Part shown: positions 3,550 to 63,842 of the stretch, one piece after another
Layout: each line of letters starts with the position of its first letter
Position numbering within the stretch: the stretch's first letter is position 1
From: Escherichia phage GoldenSnicker
DNA length: 64,000 nucleotides
Strand: one strand, 5' to 3'
Sequence record: OR896832.1
The notes under the pieces: model-generated
Databases searched by the model: none
Told to the model about the DNA's origin: nothing
Seen by the model: only the letters and a program-made list of their open reading frames with translations
Made by a program: the position numbers and the translations under genes

Positions 3550-3753
3550 TTATTTGTTAATTTCCGGTGCGTTGCTTGGATAGTAACCTTCTTTAACACC
3601 CAGATATTTTGCAACCATTCCGGTGATCTTCTGTGCTACTACGATATCGAATTTCAGGTAGTCTTCACCGTGGTTTGCTACAATGTATGCTTCGCATTCT
3701 GCTTTAGTCTGGAACATTTTTGATTCTCCTATATCTCGTTGGTATGTGTGCAT
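3550..3753 (-). CDS. hypothetical small early protein
   Basis: 67-aa ORF with promoter 3752-3781 upstream. Confidence 0.45.
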   Translation of the reverse strand: MHTYQRDIGESKMFQTKAECEAYIVANHGEDYLKFDIVVAQKITGMVAKYLGVKEGYYPSNAPEINK

Positions 3754-3781
3754 TATAGGGGATCACCGATCCCCTGTCAAC
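3752..3781 (-). promoter_or_regulatory. sigma70-type early promoter with palindromic spacer
   Basis: TTGACA (3781..3776), spacer containing ggggatcaccgatcccc inverted repeat, TATAAT (3757..3752). Confidence 0.55.
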
Positions 3782-4663: not shown

Positions 4664-4843
4664 TTACATAACAATCACGCCAGCCGTTGAAAGTTGATGT
4701 TTCAACTGAGCATTTTCTGCTACCGTCAAATCAATGATTTCTTGTGACGCTGCAATCATATAGCCATTGGTGATATTGTTTTGCATCAGTTCAATGGTCT
4801 CTTCGTTGTAGCGGATTTTAGCGATGATTTCGTTGAAGTTCAT
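4664..4843 (-). CDS. hypothetical small protein (start at internal ATG)
   Basis: listed ORF 4664-4909 begins by reading through the promoter cassette; ATG at 4843..4841 follows a GGAGA SD. Confidence 0.45.
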   Translation of the reverse strand: MNFNEIIAKIRYNEETIELMQNNITNGYMIAASQEIIDLTVAENAQLKHQLSTAGVIVM

Positions 4844-4877
4844 AATTGATTCTCCTAGTTCGTTTCGGTATGTGTGT

Positions 4878-4906
4878 AGTATAGGGGATCGGTGATCCCC
4901 TGTCAA
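4878..4906 (-). promoter_or_regulatory. sigma70-type early promoter with palindromic spacer
   Basis: TTGACA (4906..4901), 17-bp spacer ggggatcggtgatcccc, TATACT (4883..4878). Confidence 0.55.
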
Positions 4907-4919
4907 CAACTTTTTTGAA

Positions 4920-5264
4920 TTATTTTTTCATGAGCTTAATGGCTTCTTCCATAGCCAACACATTTCGATAGTTAGGGTATCTTGTTAGATCGTCATACAT
5001 TCGCTTAAGGGTGGAAACTTCCTCAAACTCTGGGTTTTCAAGATACAATTGAACGAATTGTTTCTCTACCATCTCTGCTTTTAGCTTGTCTGCTTGTTCC
5101 TGTTCATATGATTTAGTTGGACCCAACACCAACAAAATGATAAAGGTGATCAACGGGCTAATGATCAACGATAGGAGAACATAACCGATAACGCTACGGT
5201 TTAAACGGCTTGCGTACATGCCTACCAGGAAAACAAAAAGGATATAGATAAACAGAAAGAACAT
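4920..5264 (-). CDS. small membrane protein
   Basis: 114 aa with two N-terminal hydrophobic segments and a charged C-terminal tail. Confidence 0.5.
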   Translation of the reverse strand: MFFLFIYILFVFLVGMYASRLNRSVIGYVLLSLIISPLITFIILLVLGPTKSYEQEQADKLKAEMVEKQFVQLYLENPEFEEVSTLKRMYDDLTRYPNYRNVLAMEEAIKLMKK

Positions 5265-5271
5265 ATAATGG

Positions 5272-5745
5272 TTACTCCTTATTTTCGCGCTCGTACTTTT
5301 CGAAATAAAATTCTACTGGCTGGTCGTGGATTGACAGCAAGCCAAAGCGTTTAGCCGCTCGCAACCCCATATTGCGCTGAATGTACTTCTGGAAGTTCTC
5401 TCGTATACACTTACGCCAGTATTCTAAGCCCATACAGCTTTTATAAAGATTGCATTGCACACACGACGGATTCATGTTATCAAGTATATCATGTTCCGGT
5501 TTATGCATTCCTACAACCTTATACTTCCACGATCCATCATCATTACGGGCAATTCGTCCCTTTTCATCATAGACTACTTTTGAGCGTCGCAATACTGGTT
5601 TGATGTGGTCTGCGTGCCAGCGATCCCCTAGTTCCTCGCCACAATAGGCACAACGTCCACCGTATTTCATTTTCAGGATCTGGCGTTGCTCTTTCTTTGA
5701 CAATTTTTTAGGTTTAGGGGCTTTCGCCCCTTCATTATCACACAT
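5272..5745 (-). CDS. HNH endonuclease (free-standing, homing-type)
   Basis: CAYCGEEL...HADHIKP...CVQCN HNH motif; overlaps 3' end of the ligase gene by 8 nt. Confidence 0.65.
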   Translation of the reverse strand: MCDNEGAKAPKPKKLSKKEQRQILKMKYGGRCAYCGEELGDRWHADHIKPVLRRSKVVYDEKGRIARNDDGSWKYKVVGMHKPEHDILDNMNPSCVQCNLYKSCMGLEYWRKCIRENFQKYIQRNMGLRAAKRFGLLSIHDQPVEFYFEKYERENKE

Positions 5746-13943: not shown

Positions 13944-14420
13944 TTAATCATGACCGTGATTTGCAATATCCGCTCGCGTCTTATCTTTGTGATTTCCTAC
14001 GTCAAAGACACGATAACCATTTTCACGCAAAACTTTAATCACTTCTGGGTTATCCTCAAAGACTCCGACAACTTCATCTTTATCAAAGGATTTAATTACC
14101 TCTAATTTTATGTGATAGTCTTTACGGGAATCGGTACGGCCTCTCATAAAGATTTTATCAAAACACACCCCGTTAGAAATTAACCAATCAATTGTTTCCA
14201 TGTAAGCATGTGAACTTCGTCCGGTGAGGATGTAAATCAAATGCCCGTTGTCGGAAAGAGCATTAATAACACGAATTACATCGTAAATGGGGGAATCACC
14301 CCCACATGCCTTGTTATATTCGATCCATGACTCGACTTTATCAAGATTTTCAGTTGGCATCTTTGCTAGTCGATGCGTTGGATCTGTGATCGTAAAATCT
14401 AAATCGACAAAATATATCAT
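13944..14420 (-). CDS. HAD-family phosphatase (PseT phosphatase-domain-like)
   Basis: N-terminal DLDFTIT (DxDxT), TGR, K and DN motifs of HAD fold; 158 aa. Confidence 0.6.
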   Translation of the reverse strand: MIYFVDLDFTITDPTHRLAKMPTENLDKVESWIEYNKACGGDSPIYDVIRVINALSDNGHLIYILTGRSSHAYMETIDWLISNGVCFDKIFMRGRTDSRKDYHIKLEVIKSFDKDEVVGVFEDNPEVIKVLRENGYRVFDVGNHKDKTRADIANHGHD

Positions 14421-15577
14421 AGATATTTCCCGAATCGGTTGTAGTCATCGTCTGTTAAATCGGTATTAACCTGAGATACCAGATACATAATCTCTACTTC
14501 TTGCGCCGCGTTTTGAACTTCGTCAGAGTTCAACCATTTACGCATCCACGGTAACGGATGACGACGAACACTAAACGGGCTTTTCAGTCCGGCAGCGCGC
14601 ATACGGGAATCTGCCAGGTATTCTACATAGGTTTTCAGAATTTCCGGTGACAGGTTAGGAATTGCCCCCATTGCGAATAGGTGGTCTACCCATTCTTTTT
14701 CTTGCTCGACAACATCCAGAAAGATTTTCGTTGCTTCGCCTTCAAGTTCTTCCGCAATCTGTTTCCACTCATCACCATCAACCCCCGTTTGCCATTGACG
14801 AATAATGTATTGTGTTCCTTTTAAGTGAAGTTGTTCATCACGCGCAATAAATTTCATGATCTTCGCGTTACCTTCCAGTAAACCACGTTCGGCAAAGCTG
14901 AAAGTACATGCAAAGGACACATAAAAACGGATTGCTTCCAGTGCATTTACGCAGTGTGCACACAGATAAATCGAAGCCATCAGATCTCGTTTTGTATCTT
15001 CAAAAAATCTTCTTGCATCATCTAATGCTGTCTGGTCGTCTCGTTCTTCCCAATAGCGGAGATCTTCTTTTGCATTCTCATACTTACGAATCCAATAAAG
15101 AACATCATCATAATATTTCCCGATAGATTCCGCTCGCTTCATGATAGCAGGGTTATCGATGATCTGGTCGAACTCACTAGCCGGATCAATGAAACAGTTA
15201 CGCATAATGTGTGTATAGCTTCGGCTATGAATTGTTTCGCTGAATGTCCATGTTTGCAACCATGTATCGAGAGTTGGATCAGATACAATTGGACCAAATG
15301 CTGCGGACGGTGCGCGACCTTGAATAGAATCAAGTAATGTCTGATACTTCAAGTTTTCAGTAAAGAAACGCTTTTCAACGTCACCCATATTAAGATATTG
15401 AATACGGTCGGTTGCAAGTGAAATTTCTTCGGGTCGCCAAAAAAATGACAATTGCTTTTCGATCAGTTCTTCAAATACTTGATGACGCTGAATATCATAG
15501 CGAGCGATACCCAACCCACTACCCAGAAACATTGGTTCGTTCATAATATCAACATGTTCGCGGTTAAATACGCTCAT
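14417..15577 (-). CDS. nrdB: ribonucleotide reductase small subunit
   Basis: 386-aa uninterrupted ORF with class Ia R2 features, position and size as T4 NrdB. Confidence 0.85.
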   Translation of the reverse strand: MSVFNREHVDIMNEPMFLGSGLGIARYDIQRHQVFEELIEKQLSFFWRPEEISLATDRIQYLNMGDVEKRFFTENLKYQTLLDSIQGRAPSAAFGPIVSDPTLDTWLQTWTFSETIHSRSYTHIMRNCFIDPASEFDQIIDNPAIMKRAESIGKYYDDVLYWIRKYENAKEDLRYWEERDDQTALDDARRFFEDTKRDLMASIYLCAHCVNALEAIRFYVSFACTFSFAERGLLEGNAKIMKFIARDEQLHLKGTQYIIRQWQTGVDGDEWKQIAEELEGEATKIFLDVVEQEKEWVDHLFAMGAIPNLSPEILKTYVEYLADSRMRAAGLKSPFSVRRHPLPWMRKWLNSDEVQNAAQEVEIMYLVSQVNTDLTDDDYNRFGKYL

Positions 15578-15592
15578 TAATTCACCTCACTA

Positions 15593-15760
15593 TCACTTTT
15601 TAACACAAAAGAACTTAGTATTTCTGTTTATTTCGCTATCCTGCTGCAATTCCTGCACAGCTTCAAAACAATTTTGATATGATGAAAACTCTACGCTGGT
15701 AACAGTTCCTTTATTATATACGCCTACGCTAACGGAAAGCAATAACCATAATGTAGCCAT
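15593..15760 (-). CDS. small hypothetical protein, nrdA-nrdB intergenic paralog 1
   Basis: 55 aa, translated codon by codon: MATLWLLLSVSVGVYNKG...FFCVKK; start overlaps upstream stop (TAATG). Confidence 0.45.
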   Translation of the reverse strand: MATLWLLLSVSVGVYNKGTVTSVEFSSYQNCFEAVQELQQDSEINRNTKFFCVKK

Positions 15761-15933
15761 TAGTTCACCTTTTGTTTTTCAACGCAATATAGATTCATAA
15801 AGCGTTTATTGTCTTCGCGGATAATCTCGCGAACTTTAACGCAATCCTGCTTTGTTGCAAACTCAATGCTTGACATATTTCCGTAATTATACATTGAATT
15901 GCTGATTGCAATCAATAACCATACAGTAGCCAT
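15760..15933 (-). CDS. small hypothetical protein, nrdA-nrdB intergenic paralog 2
   Basis: 57 aa: MATVWLLIAISNSMYNYG...LYCVEKQKVN; TAATG coupling at both ends. Confidence 0.45.
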   Translation of the reverse strand: MATVWLLIAISNSMYNYGNMSSIEFATKQDCVKVREIIREDNKRFMNLYCVEKQKVN

Positions 15934-16100
15934 TATCCTACAACCTCAAAACATTTATCATCAGGAAGAATCGCCCATTCTACACCGTATTCATCCTCGA
16001 CGTAGTAGCAAGTCCCATCATGTCGAGCATCATATTCATCACCAACAACAAAGCTATCAGCTAGCTCAAAATCTACAGCAACACATTTTAATTTGGTCAT
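15933..16100 (-). CDS. small hypothetical acidic protein
   Basis: 55 aa from internal ATG after GAGGA SD; listed ORF start reads through the promoter. Confidence 0.4.
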   Translation of the reverse strand: MTKLKCVAVDFELADSFVVGDEYDARHDGTCYYVEDEYGVEWAILPDDKCFEVVG

Positions 16101-16131
16101 AATAAAATCCTCACTTGTTTTTGATGGTTGT

Positions 16132-16160
16132 ATTATAGCGGGGATTTCTCCCCGCGTCAA
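16132..16160 (-). promoter_or_regulatory. sigma70-type early promoter
   Basis: TTGACG (16160..16155), 17 bp, TATAAT (16137..16132); inverted repeat ggggagaaatcccc nearby. Confidence 0.5.
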
Positions 16161-16168
16161 CACTTATT

Positions 16169-18412
16169 TTACAGCTTGCAAGATGAGCACTCGCTAGCGT
16201 CTTCCGTACCATCAGCACCGTCGCGAACGTTCGCATAATACAGGGTTTTCAGACCGTAATATTGAGCAAACAACATATCATCTAACACATCAGCAATATC
16301 GACTTTACCAGTCTTATAAGTGCTTGGATCGTAGGATGTGTTGGAACTAATCGCCTGATCCACAAACTTCTGCATGATCGCTGCCAGTGTCAGATAAGGC
16401 TTGTTACCTTTCTTGATCAGTGTCCAAAGCAGGTCAATAACATCAGCATTATTCTCTACGTTCGGAATAACCTGATTAAATTGCCCTTCTTTCGATCCTT
16501 TAACCGATACAATCCCGCGAGGCGGTTCAATACCATTTGTGCTGTTAGACACCTGAGAGGACGACTCACAAGGCATCAGCGCCGACAGTGTACTGTTACG
16601 AATGCCATATTTTTTCAGGTCTTCGCGCAGTTCTTCCCAATCCATCTCATACACCGGATCAACCAGTTCATCTACTGTCTTTTTGTACCAGTCGATAGGA
16701 AGTTCACCGCGACCATAGCGTGTTTCGTGCATCAGTTCGCAAGCACCCTTCTCTTTAGCCAGTTGCACACTAGCCTTAATCAGAGCATATTGCAAGCGTT
16801 CAAACGTTTTATGCGTAAACTCGTTAGCGTCTTCATATGTGAAGAAATTATCTGCTAGATATGATGCAAAGTTAGTCACACCAACACCCAGAGAGCGACG
16901 TTTTTTGGCTGTCAGAGCTTGTTCTACAGGATAATCCTGATAATCTAACAGGTTGTCAAGTGCACGCACCATAACCATAGCAATGCGTTCTACTTCTTCC
17001 ATATTTTCGATATCGAAATTACCTAAAACATATGCTGCCAAAGTACATAGGCTAATTTCTGAATCATCACGACCCATCGGTTTTGTAGGCAGAGCAATTT
17101 CACAACACAGGTTAGATTGTTTAATCGGTGCTACATTACGAATAAACGCCCCGTGATTGTTCATGTTGTCTGTGAACGCTGGGTAGATTCGACCAGTGTT
17201 AAAACGTTCAATTGCCACCGCTAAAAACAGGTCTTCGGCTTTAACACGAGTTTTACGAACACTCGGATCTTTTTCCAGTTTTTCGTAAAGCTGGCGGAAA
17301 CCTTCCTCATCTCGGAAGTATAGATCCCACAACAAGCCACCCGCAACATCTGGACTAAACAGAGTAATGTAATCCCGTTTAAGGAATCGCTCTACCATCA
17401 GGTTATTAATCTGTACGCCGTAATCAAGATGACGAATGCGGTTATCTTCCACCCCCTTATTGTTCTTTAACACAATCAGACTTTCAAACTCTAAATGCCA
17501 CATTGGGTAATAGAGAGTCGCTGCCCCGCCACGAATACCGCCTTGTGAGCATGACTTAACGGCAGTCTGAAAATGTTTCCAGAATGGGATAACGCCAGTA
17601 TGACGAACTTCACCATGCCCGATCTTAGACCCTTCCGCGCGAATCATGCCAGCGTTGATACCGATACCAGCACGCTTGCTAATATACTTAATGATTGCAT
17701 TTGCGGTTTCATTAATACCCTGCAATGAGTCATCACTTTCAATCACCACACACGAACTAAATTGGCGTGTTGGGGTACGCACACCTGCCATAATCGGAGT
17801 AGGCAGAGAGATTTGCTTATTCGCAACAGCATTATAAAAATCAATCACATGTTCAAGTCGATTTTCTGTCTCTTCTTGATGCAAGCACATACCGATCAGC
17901 ATATACGCAAATTGCGGTGTTTCGATGATTTTCTTAGTGCTGCGATCCTGAACAAGATATTTCTCTTTTAACTGCATCGCACCAGCATAGGTCATTTTAA
18001 AATCAAGTTTATGGTCGATGAATTTCTCCAGATATTCCACTTCTTCACGGGAATACTTTTGTAGAATTTCGCGATCATATTTTCCGGTTGCAATATTACG
18101 CTCAATATGGCTATAAAAATCAATAGGTTGGAATTGACCGTATACTGATTTACGAAGCGCGAACATTGCAAGGTTACTTGCTACATATTGATAATCAGGC
18201 GTTTCTACAGTGATGTTATCTGCGGCGACCTTAATCAATACTTTCTGGATATCATTGGTAGACATACCTTCTGTCAGAAGTGGTTCAACCATATCAAACA
18301 ATTCATATGGATCAACGTTATGACCTTCGGCTGCCGCTTCCAGAATTTTCATTACTTTTTCTTTTTCAAACGGAACAGTCAGACCGGAAGACTTAACAAC
18401 ATTTTTAATCAT
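16169..18412 (-). CDS. nrdA: ribonucleotide reductase large subunit
   Basis: 747 aa; near-colinear with T4/E. coli NrdA (PTRQFSSCVVIE, NLCCEIA, SALMPCESSSQVSNSTNG, C-terminal CSSCKL). Confidence 0.9.
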   Translation of the reverse strand: MIKNVVKSSGLTVPFEKEKVMKILEAAAEGHNVDPYELFDMVEPLLTEGMSTNDIQKVLIKVAADNITVETPDYQYVASNLAMFALRKSVYGQFQPIDFYSHIERNIATGKYDREILQKYSREEVEYLEKFIDHKLDFKMTYAGAMQLKEKYLVQDRSTKKIIETPQFAYMLIGMCLHQEETENRLEHVIDFYNAVANKQISLPTPIMAGVRTPTRQFSSCVVIESDDSLQGINETANAIIKYISKRAGIGINAGMIRAEGSKIGHGEVRHTGVIPFWKHFQTAVKSCSQGGIRGGAATLYYPMWHLEFESLIVLKNNKGVEDNRIRHLDYGVQINNLMVERFLKRDYITLFSPDVAGGLLWDLYFRDEEGFRQLYEKLEKDPSVRKTRVKAEDLFLAVAIERFNTGRIYPAFTDNMNNHGAFIRNVAPIKQSNLCCEIALPTKPMGRDDSEISLCTLAAYVLGNFDIENMEEVERIAMVMVRALDNLLDYQDYPVEQALTAKKRRSLGVGVTNFASYLADNFFTYEDANEFTHKTFERLQYALIKASVQLAKEKGACELMHETRYGRGELPIDWYKKTVDELVDPVYEMDWEELREDLKKYGIRNSTLSALMPCESSSQVSNSTNGIEPPRGIVSVKGSKEGQFNQVIPNVENNADVIDLLWTLIKKGNKPYLTLAAIMQKFVDQAISSNTSYDPSTYKTGKVDIADVLDDMLFAQYYGLKTLYYANVRDGADGTEDASECSSCKL

Positions 18413-18479
18413 ATTACCTCACTTCATATTTTAGCAGGAACAAGTTTATCCTCCATATTGGGGGCTTTCGCCCCCTTTG

Positions 18480-19700
18480 TTATACTGCCATTTGAGCGGT
18501 GATCGCTGGATGGCTTTGATAGTTGTGAATTTTAAAATCTTTCGGAGTCTTTGTCAATACCTCATCTAAAGATTTAAATTCCGGCAACTCAATTGTTGGT
18601 TTATCAAACGGAACACGGCTTAACTGTTCCATAACTTGATCAAAATGGTTTTTATAAATGTGAGTATCTCCACCAGAGAAAATCAGTTCTCCTACCTCAA
18701 GATCACACATTTTCGCTATGATGTGAGTTAACAGCGCATAGCTGGCGACGTTAAAGGGCAAGCCTAAAAAGCTGTCTACGCTTCGCTGAAACCACATACA
18801 AGACAGTTTACCTTCATTGACGTAGAATTGCACGAAAGGATGACATACACCTAACACAGCATTATGCGTTTCCTGTACGTTCCATGAATCAATGATAATA
18901 CGACGACTATATGGATCATTCTTGATCATGTCAATAACTTTTTGTAACTGGTCTTCCCAAATCTTCGGGCGATAGACATATTCTTCATCGTCTTTAGTGC
19001 TTGATGTGTCTACGTCCATACTAACAAACATCGTGGTATCCGGTGCTATAATATCCCCACCCAGATAATCACTATCAAGCAGATAACCGAAATAACCATC
19101 ATCTACCCATTCCTGGAATCCCCACAAGCAATATGCATCATTAACAAAATTAGATTGAGTCTTCCAGTGGTCTGCTACCAGAATATAATCAAACTCTTCA
19201 TAACGCATACCACGCCAGATAGCACATAAACGGTCTTCTGTTTCATTGGTTGGCGTAAAGTCTTCTACCCACGGGTGTTTAAATGTATGTGTATATTTGC
19301 TCTTAACGCGCTTAATTTTGATTTCACCGTGTGGATGAATCGGTTTGCGTCGCCACGCCATACCATACATATTGCCGACATTATAACCATTGAATCGCAA
19401 AGGATTCTTTTCTTTCATATCAAGGCAGTTTCCGCGCCAAATATCAAAGGCTTCCTCGTCAAACTTGCCGCGTGTAATTTCCTGTAAGCGACGGCGGTCA
19501 AGTGACCCCTCCATAAACCATAGCAACTCGCCAATTATAGAGGCTGTAGCCATCTTTTTAGTGGTCAGTAATGGAAAACCCTTACTTAAATCAATTCGCA
19601 TCTCTGCGCCGAATTTAGAGAGCGTACCTACCCCAGTTCGGTCTTCACGAGGCCAGCCATTATCAAGAACATCACGCAACAGTTTCAAATATTCTTTCAT
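18480..19700 (-). CDS. td: thymidylate synthase with ~110-aa internal insertion
   Basis: ThyA motifs (DRTGTG-like, DSWNV, CHPFVQFY, FLGLPFNVASYALL, GDTHIY); extra segment between the GxxWR and DPxSRR motifs; no intron. Confidence 0.85.
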   Translation of the reverse strand: MKEYLKLLRDVLDNGWPREDRTGVGTLSKFGAEMRIDLSKGFPLLTTKKMATASIIGELLWFMEGSLDRRRLQEITRGKFDEEAFDIWRGNCLDMKEKNPLRFNGYNVGNMYGMAWRRKPIHPHGEIKIKRVKSKYTHTFKHPWVEDFTPTNETEDRLCAIWRGMRYEEFDYILVADHWKTQSNFVNDAYCLWGFQEWVDDGYFGYLLDSDYLGGDIIAPDTTMFVSMDVDTSSTKDDEEYVYRPKIWEDQLQKVIDMIKNDPYSRRIIIDSWNVQETHNAVLGVCHPFVQFYVNEGKLSCMWFQRSVDSFLGLPFNVASYALLTHIIAKMCDLEVGELIFSGGDTHIYKNHFDQVMEQLSRVPFDKPTIELPEFKSLDEVLTKTPKDFKIHNYQSHPAITAQMAV

Positions 19701-63760: not shown

Positions 63761-63842
63761 AATATAAACTCCTTCACTTACGAAAGACACTCATTATAGG
63801 GGAATCGACTTAGTTTGTCAATACCCCTATCCCATCAGTATC

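Follow-up and report, generated by a model that had tools for sequence, protein, structure and literature searches.

The genes for the two subunits of the class Ia ribonucleotide reductase (RNR) of Escherichia phage GoldenSnicker (GenBank accession number OR896832.1) are separated by three very short ORFs, which raises the question of whether these ORFs are genes and, if so, when they are expressed and what their products do. The DNA analyzed here is a 64,000-nucleotide stretch of this genome (the window), and its source is a Krischvirus, an RB49-like T4-type phage of the Straboviridae. The junction between nrdA and nrdB holds three minus-strand ORFs, designated ORF-A, ORF-B, and ORF-C, at the coordinates at which they were first noticed in an earlier note on this sequence. 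The features of the locus are as follows, in the direction of transcription.

16169 to 18412, minus strand: nrdA, encoding the large subunit of class Ia RNR (upstream flank)
16132 to 16160, minus strand: PeSL element, with a -35 hexamer TTGACG at 16160 to 16155, a 17-nt spacer, and a -10 hexamer TATAAT at 16137 to 16132
16100 to 15933, minus strand: ORF-A (RB49ORF233c of phage RB49), 55 amino acids (aa), three cysteines, phrog_16302
15933 to 15760, minus strand: ORF-B (RB49ORF232c), 57 aa, beginning MATVWLL, phrog_5579
15760 to 15593, minus strand: ORF-C (RB49ORF231c), 55 aa, beginning MATLWLL, paralog of ORF-B, phrog_5579
15575 to 15592 (including the nrdB ATG), minus strand: the 15-nt ORF-C/nrdB spacer, AGTGAGGTGAATTAA, bearing the nrdB Shine-Dalgarno (SD) sequence
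14417 to 15577, minus strand: nrdB, encoding the small subunit of class Ia RNR (downstream flank), with its ATG at 15577 to 15575

The coordinates, lengths, and motifs that the earlier note had given for the three ORFs all proved correct, including the acidic character of the 55-aa product that precedes the similar pair; ORF-A has 14 D/E against 4 K/R, a net charge of -10. Its claim that each start overlaps the previous stop was read directly at both junctions, which are TAATG on the minus strand with a one-base overlap of stop and start (plus-strand cat at 15931 to 15933 and tta at 15933 to 15935 for A/B, and cat at 15758 to 15760 and tta at 15760 to 15762 for B/C). Each ORF also has its own SD or SD-like site: ORF-A has GAGG at 16112 to 16109 with the ATG 8 nt further, ORF-B has GAGG approximately 10 nt upstream as well as AGGA, and ORF-C has AAGGTGA 4 nt upstream of its start. 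A longer, 76-aa version of ORF-A with a GTG start at 16163 was rejected because this start precedes the -10 box and lacks an SD sequence, whereas the ATG at 16100 has GAGG.

The three genes are already known and are annotated as hypothetical proteins in RB49 and in nearly all Krischvirus genomes. The 901-bp region shows 99.9% DNA identity to Escherichia phages vB_Eco_TB34 and vB_Eco_SAP and 98.4% to RB49, and it was matched in 58 phage records by megablast, those with taxonomy checked being Krischvirus (Straboviridae). The ORFs do fall below the length cutoff of the ORF list used for the earlier note, as was stated there, yet the RB49 record (GenBank accession number AY343333; proteins AAQ15455 to AAQ15457) and nearly all related records annotate them, and those of phages GEC-3S and Makalu also annotate a promoter, a terminator, and ribosome binding sites around them. 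The reading frames, whose conservation in relatives the earlier note had proposed as a check, are kept. Nei-Gojobori counts over the window and six to eight Krischvirus relatives (seven to nine genomes) gave pN/pS values of 0.10 for ORF-A, 0.06 for ORF-B, and 0.22 for ORF-C, with pS values of 0.12 to 0.19 that are comparable to those of the adjoining parts of nrdB (pN/pS, 0.04) and nrdA (pN/pS, 0.02). With pN/pS this low and pS like that of the flanks, purifying selection is acting on all three at the protein level. That they are merely intergenic filler open by chance, as could be argued from their very short length, the lack of any known domain, and the ORFan status of ORF-A, is extremely improbable; the conservation data effectively refute it, and the SD sites, together with the spread of the ORF-B/ORF-C family over unrelated phage taxa and its confident fold prediction, both described below, speak against it as well. 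The three ORFs are very probably real genes of an early cassette.

The promoter-hairpin element listed above lies in the 68-bp spacer between nrdA and ORF-A, with the nrdA stop codon 8 nt before its -35 hexamer. Its promoter, TTGACG-CGGGGAGAAATCCCCGC-TATAAT, agrees with the sigma-70 consensus at 11 of 12 positions, and nearly the whole of the 17-nt promoter spacer is filled by a hairpin with a 7-bp GC stem and a GAAA loop (GCGGGGA-GAAA-TCCCCGC; 16155 to 16138). As RNA, this hairpin has a folding energy of -19 kcal/mol (z = -6.3), and none of 200 shuffled sequences folds as well. In phages RB49 and phi1, one class of PeSLs (promoter-early stem-loops) has the stem-loop between the -35 and -10 hexamers (Arbiol et al. 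2010, PMC2839356), and it was shown experimentally in these phages that PeSL promoters are very strong and that the stem-loops attenuate upstream transcription (PMC2839356). The element before ORF-A belongs to this published class, and by analogy with other PeSLs, it would act both as a promoter and as an attenuator. Searches of the main text of PMC2839356 by gene name and ORF number did not turn up this PeSL.

The 64-kb window has 19 near-consensus sigma-70 promoters (defined as TTGACN, 16 to 18 nt, and TANAAT); every one of them lies on the minus strand and the plus strand has none, as expected for an early region. Neither a promoter nor a terminator-like site was found in the ORF-C/nrdB spacer by reading of the sequence and a site scan, so the likely transcript runs from the PeSL through ORF-A, ORF-B, and ORF-C into nrdB, and nrdB is probably cotranscribed with the three ORFs. 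The early timing and the transcript structure of the cassette would follow from the published work on PeSLs.

Further promoters with hairpins are present in the window. At least two of them, GGGGATCGGTGATCCCC at approximately 3752 to 3780 and another at 63793 to 63821 (minus strand), carry GC-rich hairpins within or near the spacer and are probably further PeSLs. A perfect GC hairpin, GGGGGCGAAAGCCCCC (18460 to 18475, minus strand), lies between the stop of the thymidylate synthase gene (td) and the start of nrdA, and the 3' end of td contains a promoter matching 11 of 12 sigma-70 positions, TTGACA-17-TAAAAT (18529 to 18557, minus strand). The two resemble a split promoter/attenuator arrangement placed upstream of nrdA. 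The td ORF itself (18480 to 19700, minus strand) encodes 406 aa, and RB49 annotates a similar td of 410 aa. The Td protein of T4 has approximately 286 aa. The td product of the window is thus approximately 120 aa longer than that of T4, and the extra part is apparently an internal insertion at approximately residues 120 to 250.

The nrdA-nrdB junction also takes up other genes. In phage KMB43, an 852-bp DNA-cytosine methyltransferase gene lies between nrdA and ORF-A and is flanked by two identical copies of the PeSL that precedes ORF-A (901 to 958 and 1809 to 1868 of its locus). It was proposed that PeSLs serve as sites of recombination and thereby shuffle ORFan cassettes (PMC2839356), and the KMB43 arrangement fits this proposal, in which genes are gained or lost between the repeats; it appears to be a clear case, in nature, of a cassette inserted by way of PeSLs. 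Phages Delraymugoa, Aragogtheria, and LF73P4 show a split match of KMB43-like size at the same site, and the records of Delraymugoa and Aragogtheria list a DNA methyltransferase under it. At the other end of the cassette, phage PTE-Eco09 carries a homing endonuclease gene between ORF-C and nrdB (385 to 1032 of its locus). Judged by these gene contents and by that of T4, which is considered below, genes have evidently inserted at this junction repeatedly in T4-type phages.

ORF-B and ORF-C are paralogs, as the earlier note had proposed from a shared pattern of YNxG, S(V/I)EF, and two cysteines. Their products align over the full length with 36% identity and 73% positives (BLASTP E value, 4e-15), and each gives a full-length match to phrog_5579 (ORF-B, E = 1.7e-22, residues 2 to 53 against positions 1 to 52 of the 52-position profile; ORF-C, E = 5.7e-24). 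A family hidden Markov model (HMM), which ORF-B matches with an E value of 2.3e-24, found no other member elsewhere in the 64-kb window. An exhaustive HMMER profile search of 1.84 billion representative proteins recovered 72 clusters (representatives at 50% identity) at an E value of 1e-3 or lower, and nearly all of these proteins have 50 to 70 aa. Other searches reached less far: a word-indexed protein search with ORF-B and ORF-C returned close relatives only, with no name supplied by any source, a scan of IMG/VR returned two Krischvirus loci only, and a tblastn search with a divergent metagenomic member (P0028) matched only the Krischvirus ORF-B among cultured phages. Scans of all three junction proteins against Pfam, NCBIfam, and PADLOC gave nothing significant, the last of these including no defense-system match; the best Pfam-type match of ORF-C was TFA2_Winged_2 (E = 0.14, far below the curated cutoff), and a PDB sequence search with the family profile gave no match.

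Every context examined for a homolog of ORF-B and ORF-C was phage or phage-like. Members from cultured phages are present in the Drexlerviridae phage JeanPiccard (bas02_0072), the Koutsourovirus SDFMU_EhYP, and an Erwinia jumbo phage. The member of Enterobacter phage SDFMU_EhYP, a 56-aa protein (MNTVWLLIAISSGSYNRGNVSSVEF...) encoded at 2501 to 2671, is unannotated in GenBank and lies in a 1.1-kb "empty" gap between the AAA ATPase and DNA polymerase genes. Metagenomic homologs lie in arrays of small ORFs beside genes for GIY-YIG and HNH endonucleases, helicases, NinG, and NAD or nucleotide metabolism. The NinG gene on one contig is of the lambda type, and other contigs are about 42 and 46 kb long; among eight metagenomic contexts, no annotated neighbor recurs. 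As judged from these surroundings, the homologs always appear to lie among small accessory ORFs, in early or replication regions, and the phages concerned are unrelated. No RNR is annotated in JeanPiccard; the family thus has no fixed association with nrd genes. The family is single copy in the loci fetched outside Krischvirus, and Krischvirus alone was seen to carry the tandem pair. Phage FL20 (736 to 1068 of its locus) has a single hybrid with the N terminus of ORF-B (MATVWLL) and the rest of ORF-C, together with a frameshifted ORF-A, and a 44-aa metagenomic hybrid (P0017) lacks C31. Such hybrids suggest that the tandem paralogs have crossed over unequally, if they are not assembly artifacts; copy number thus varies in a manner that is consistent with unequal crossing-over.

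In an alignment of 67 family members, C31 and C52 are invariant (67/67) and are the only invariant residues, and 65 of the 67 proteins have exactly two cysteines. W5, L7, S11, G13, Y15, N16, G18, and F25 are each conserved in 49 to 65 members, and the N-terminal stretch is conserved residue by residue (W5 in 59/67, L7 in 65/67, S11 in 59/67, and G13 in 57/67). The AlphaFold2 model of ORF-C built on this alignment, which represents a lone monomer and takes no account of a membrane, predicts a compact beta-beta-alpha-alpha-beta domain (pLDDT, 95; pTM, 0.74) composed of a strand at residues 5 to 11 (WLLLSVS), a conserved loop at 12 to 19 (xGxYNxGT), a strand at 20 to 25, helices at 28 to 39 and 42 to 47, and a strand at 48 to 54. 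C31 belongs to the opening turn of helix 1, and the final strand carries C52. Dozens of uncharacterized phage proteins of approximately 50 to 70 aa in BFVD have the same fold, with TM scores of 0.7 to 0.9.

These data bear on the suggestion of the earlier note that the hydrophobic N termini mark small membrane or secreted peptides, which they do not support. On that reading, the N terminus would be a signal or an anchor, and a periplasmic disulfide made by DsbA, for which the invariant cysteine pair would be suited, might serve, e.g., superinfection exclusion or envelope modulation. However, the apolar N-terminal run averages only 6.8 residues over the 67 members, with a maximum of 9, and the best 19-residue Kyte-Doolittle window scores 1.07 for ORF-C and 0.61 for ORF-B, whereas the usual transmembrane threshold of 1.6 is reached by only 2 of the 67. 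Ahead of the hydrophobic stretch, 52 members have no charged residue, K/R occurs in 10, and D/E occurs in 7. By these statistics, the family has neither a positively charged n-region followed by an apolar h-region of at least 10 residues, as in a Sec signal, nor the transmembrane segment of at least approximately 18 residues of a single-pass protein. Conservation at the level of single residues, as seen in this stretch, is not typical of signal peptides or of a generic anchor, and the AlphaFold2 model (pLDDT of about 89 to 96 there) places the stretch in the sheet of the domain. The hydrophobic N terminus is thus predicted to be the core first beta strand of a globular domain. Export is disfavored, a membrane or secreted location is quite unlikely, and the ORF-B and ORF-C products are likely soluble globular proteins.

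ORF-A matches phrog_16302 over its whole length (E = 9e-42, residues 1 to 55 against positions 1 to 55 of the 55-position profile). Its homologs were found in Krischvirus only, both in the phage collection and in a search of 5.8 billion proteins, and it appears to be restricted to this genus. Its best Pfam match was DUF7244 (E = 0.023, far below the curated cutoff), and a PDB sequence search gave no match. ORF-A is frameshifted or truncated in several records that retain ORF-C, and this suggests that the gene is dispensable or that the sequence is prone to sequencing errors.

The explanation that best fits the locus, which we hold tentatively and at somewhat under an even chance, is an early, PeSL-driven cassette that encodes soluble binding proteins. 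The hairpin of the PeSL after nrdA would probably attenuate read-through from nrdA, and its promoter would start an early transcript that carries ORF-A, ORF-B, and ORF-C and continues into nrdB, with the three ORFs translated in series by means of the stop/start overlaps and their own SD sites. ORF-B and ORF-C are tandem duplicates of a phage-borne domain of approximately 55 aa with a G-x-Y-N-x-G loop and two invariant cysteines. Early in infection, their products would be cytoplasmic and would act on a host or host-defense protein as stoichiometric binders or as modulators; the two diverged copies may have two specificities, and the acidic, Krischvirus-only ORF-A may add a third factor of this accessory type. 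The binder or anti-host function itself, which is argued by analogy with other small early proteins of phages, is possible rather than probable. It is suggested by the small size of the proteins, the lack of catalytic features, the early promoter, and the patchy spread across unrelated phages in accessory arrays, as well as by tandem duplication with divergence (ORF-C evolves faster) and the dispensability of one copy. No specific literature was found on the expression or function of these ORFs or on Krischvirus early proteins.

A purely cytoplasmic binder would not usually have two invariant cysteines, a feature that the binder reading leaves unaccounted for and that hints at redox chemistry, a metal site, or a disulfide. 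In bacterial nrd operons, the genes yfaE, nrdH, and nrdI accompany the reductase genes, and by analogy, the position of ORF-B and ORF-C inside the nrdA-nrdB operon would be explained if their products were redox or metal-binding RNR accessory factors, possibly with a Cys4 site in a dimer, that serve as a reductant or as an iron or radical-cofactor helper for NrdA and NrdB. The location of the genes between nrdA and nrdB, their probable cotranscription with nrdB, and the presence of exactly two invariant cysteines, at the start of helix 1 and in the last strand of the model, are in keeping with such a role. On the other hand, homologs are carried in varied contexts by phages such as JeanPiccard in which no RNR is annotated, and given these carriers, a link to RNR appears unlikely. 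In addition, the proteins have no CxxC motif, thioredoxin fold, or Pfam match, one copy can be lost, as in FL20, and the junction accepts unrelated genes in KMB43, PTE-Eco09, and T4 as a general insertion hot spot. Two specific identities were considered and rejected. A thioredoxin or glutaredoxin type does not agree with the lack of Pfam and NCBIfam matches and the predicted beta-beta-alpha-alpha-beta fold, and a YfaE-type [2Fe-2S] ferredoxin has four cluster cysteines, whereas nearly all family members have exactly two and none of the junction proteins has a Pfam match. Overall, an accessory role for RNR is improbable. A broader alternative is that the ORF-B and ORF-C products are an unrecognized phage-borne two-cysteine mini-domain that acts by thiol chemistry, through a redox-active disulfide or a dimer-bridging metal or Fe-S site, and that the Krischvirus pair might act on RNR or on a host thiol-dependent target or defense system; this, too, is fairly unlikely. 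A different view is that the three products form one complex, in which acidic ORF-A pairs with or neutralizes the neutral-to-basic ORF-B and ORF-C products, like a toxin and antidote or a chaperone pair, and in which translational coupling would keep the stoichiometry. The tight TAATG coupling, the opposite net charges, and the co-occurrence of the three ORFs in nearly all Krischvirus records would suit such a complex and such a use of coupling, but the homologs of ORF-B and ORF-C in other phages stand alone with no relative of ORF-A, and ORF-A is broken in several records that keep ORF-C. Such a complex is very unlikely.

Since the genes were already annotated and the PeSL class is published, the locus adds little as a finding in itself. 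What is added is that the membrane or secreted idea is unlikely, that the ORF-B/ORF-C family spans several unrelated phage groups and combines a predicted compact fold with two invariant cysteines, and that the nrdA-nrdB junction appears to be a recurrent insertion site in T4-type phages. The sole lead worth noting is the phage-borne two-cysteine mini-domain in several unrelated phage groups; if it were a redox- or metal-dependent effector or an anti-defense protein, this would provide a function for a recurring piece of phage "dark matter," but it is a lead only.

Comparison with known systems places the proteins and their locus as follows. The full-length HMM matches to phrog_5579 and phrog_16302 add no mechanism, both being PHROGs of unknown function. 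The periplasmic domain of MzrA (PDB accession number 4pwu), ClpS, PII, PurS, and AcrIC8 are small alpha/beta sandwiches whose scores against the ORF-B/ORF-C model are in the range of generic fold resemblance, with 8 to 13% identity and no sequence-level relationship. Full-length MzrA has a transmembrane segment, whereas the model has none, and membership in the MzrA family was rejected for the lack of both sequence homology and a transmembrane anchor. Reductants of the thioredoxin and glutaredoxin type, such as NrdC and NrdH, have a CxxC motif in a thioredoxin fold, whereas the two cysteines of ORF-B and ORF-C are 21 residues apart. The nrdA-nrdB junction of T4 likewise holds facultative small genes and mobile elements (mobE and nrdB.1; 4717 to 5417 of its locus), but these are an HNH homing endonuclease gene, mobE, and the gene for an unrelated 83-aa protein, NrdB.1, which was rejected as a relative of ORF-B and ORF-C; a tblastn search with ORF-C at an E value of 1 or lower gave no match in T4 or other Tequatrovirus records. 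The closest counterparts are RB49ORF231c, -232c, and -233c, with orthologs in about 58 Krischvirus genomes. They occupy the same position between nrdA and nrdB, their proteins are identical for ORF-A and ORF-C and differ by one residue for ORF-B, and there is no substantive difference beyond this; they are annotated only as "hypothetical protein." As a unit, the locus resembles the PeSL ORFan cassettes of RB49 and phi1 (PMC2839356; Comeau et al. 2014, PMC4122927), which likewise consist of a promoter, a GC-rich stem-loop in its spacer, and then an SD sequence and small ORFs of unknown function. It differs from them in that no second PeSL follows ORF-C, and therefore the transcript would run on into the core gene nrdB.
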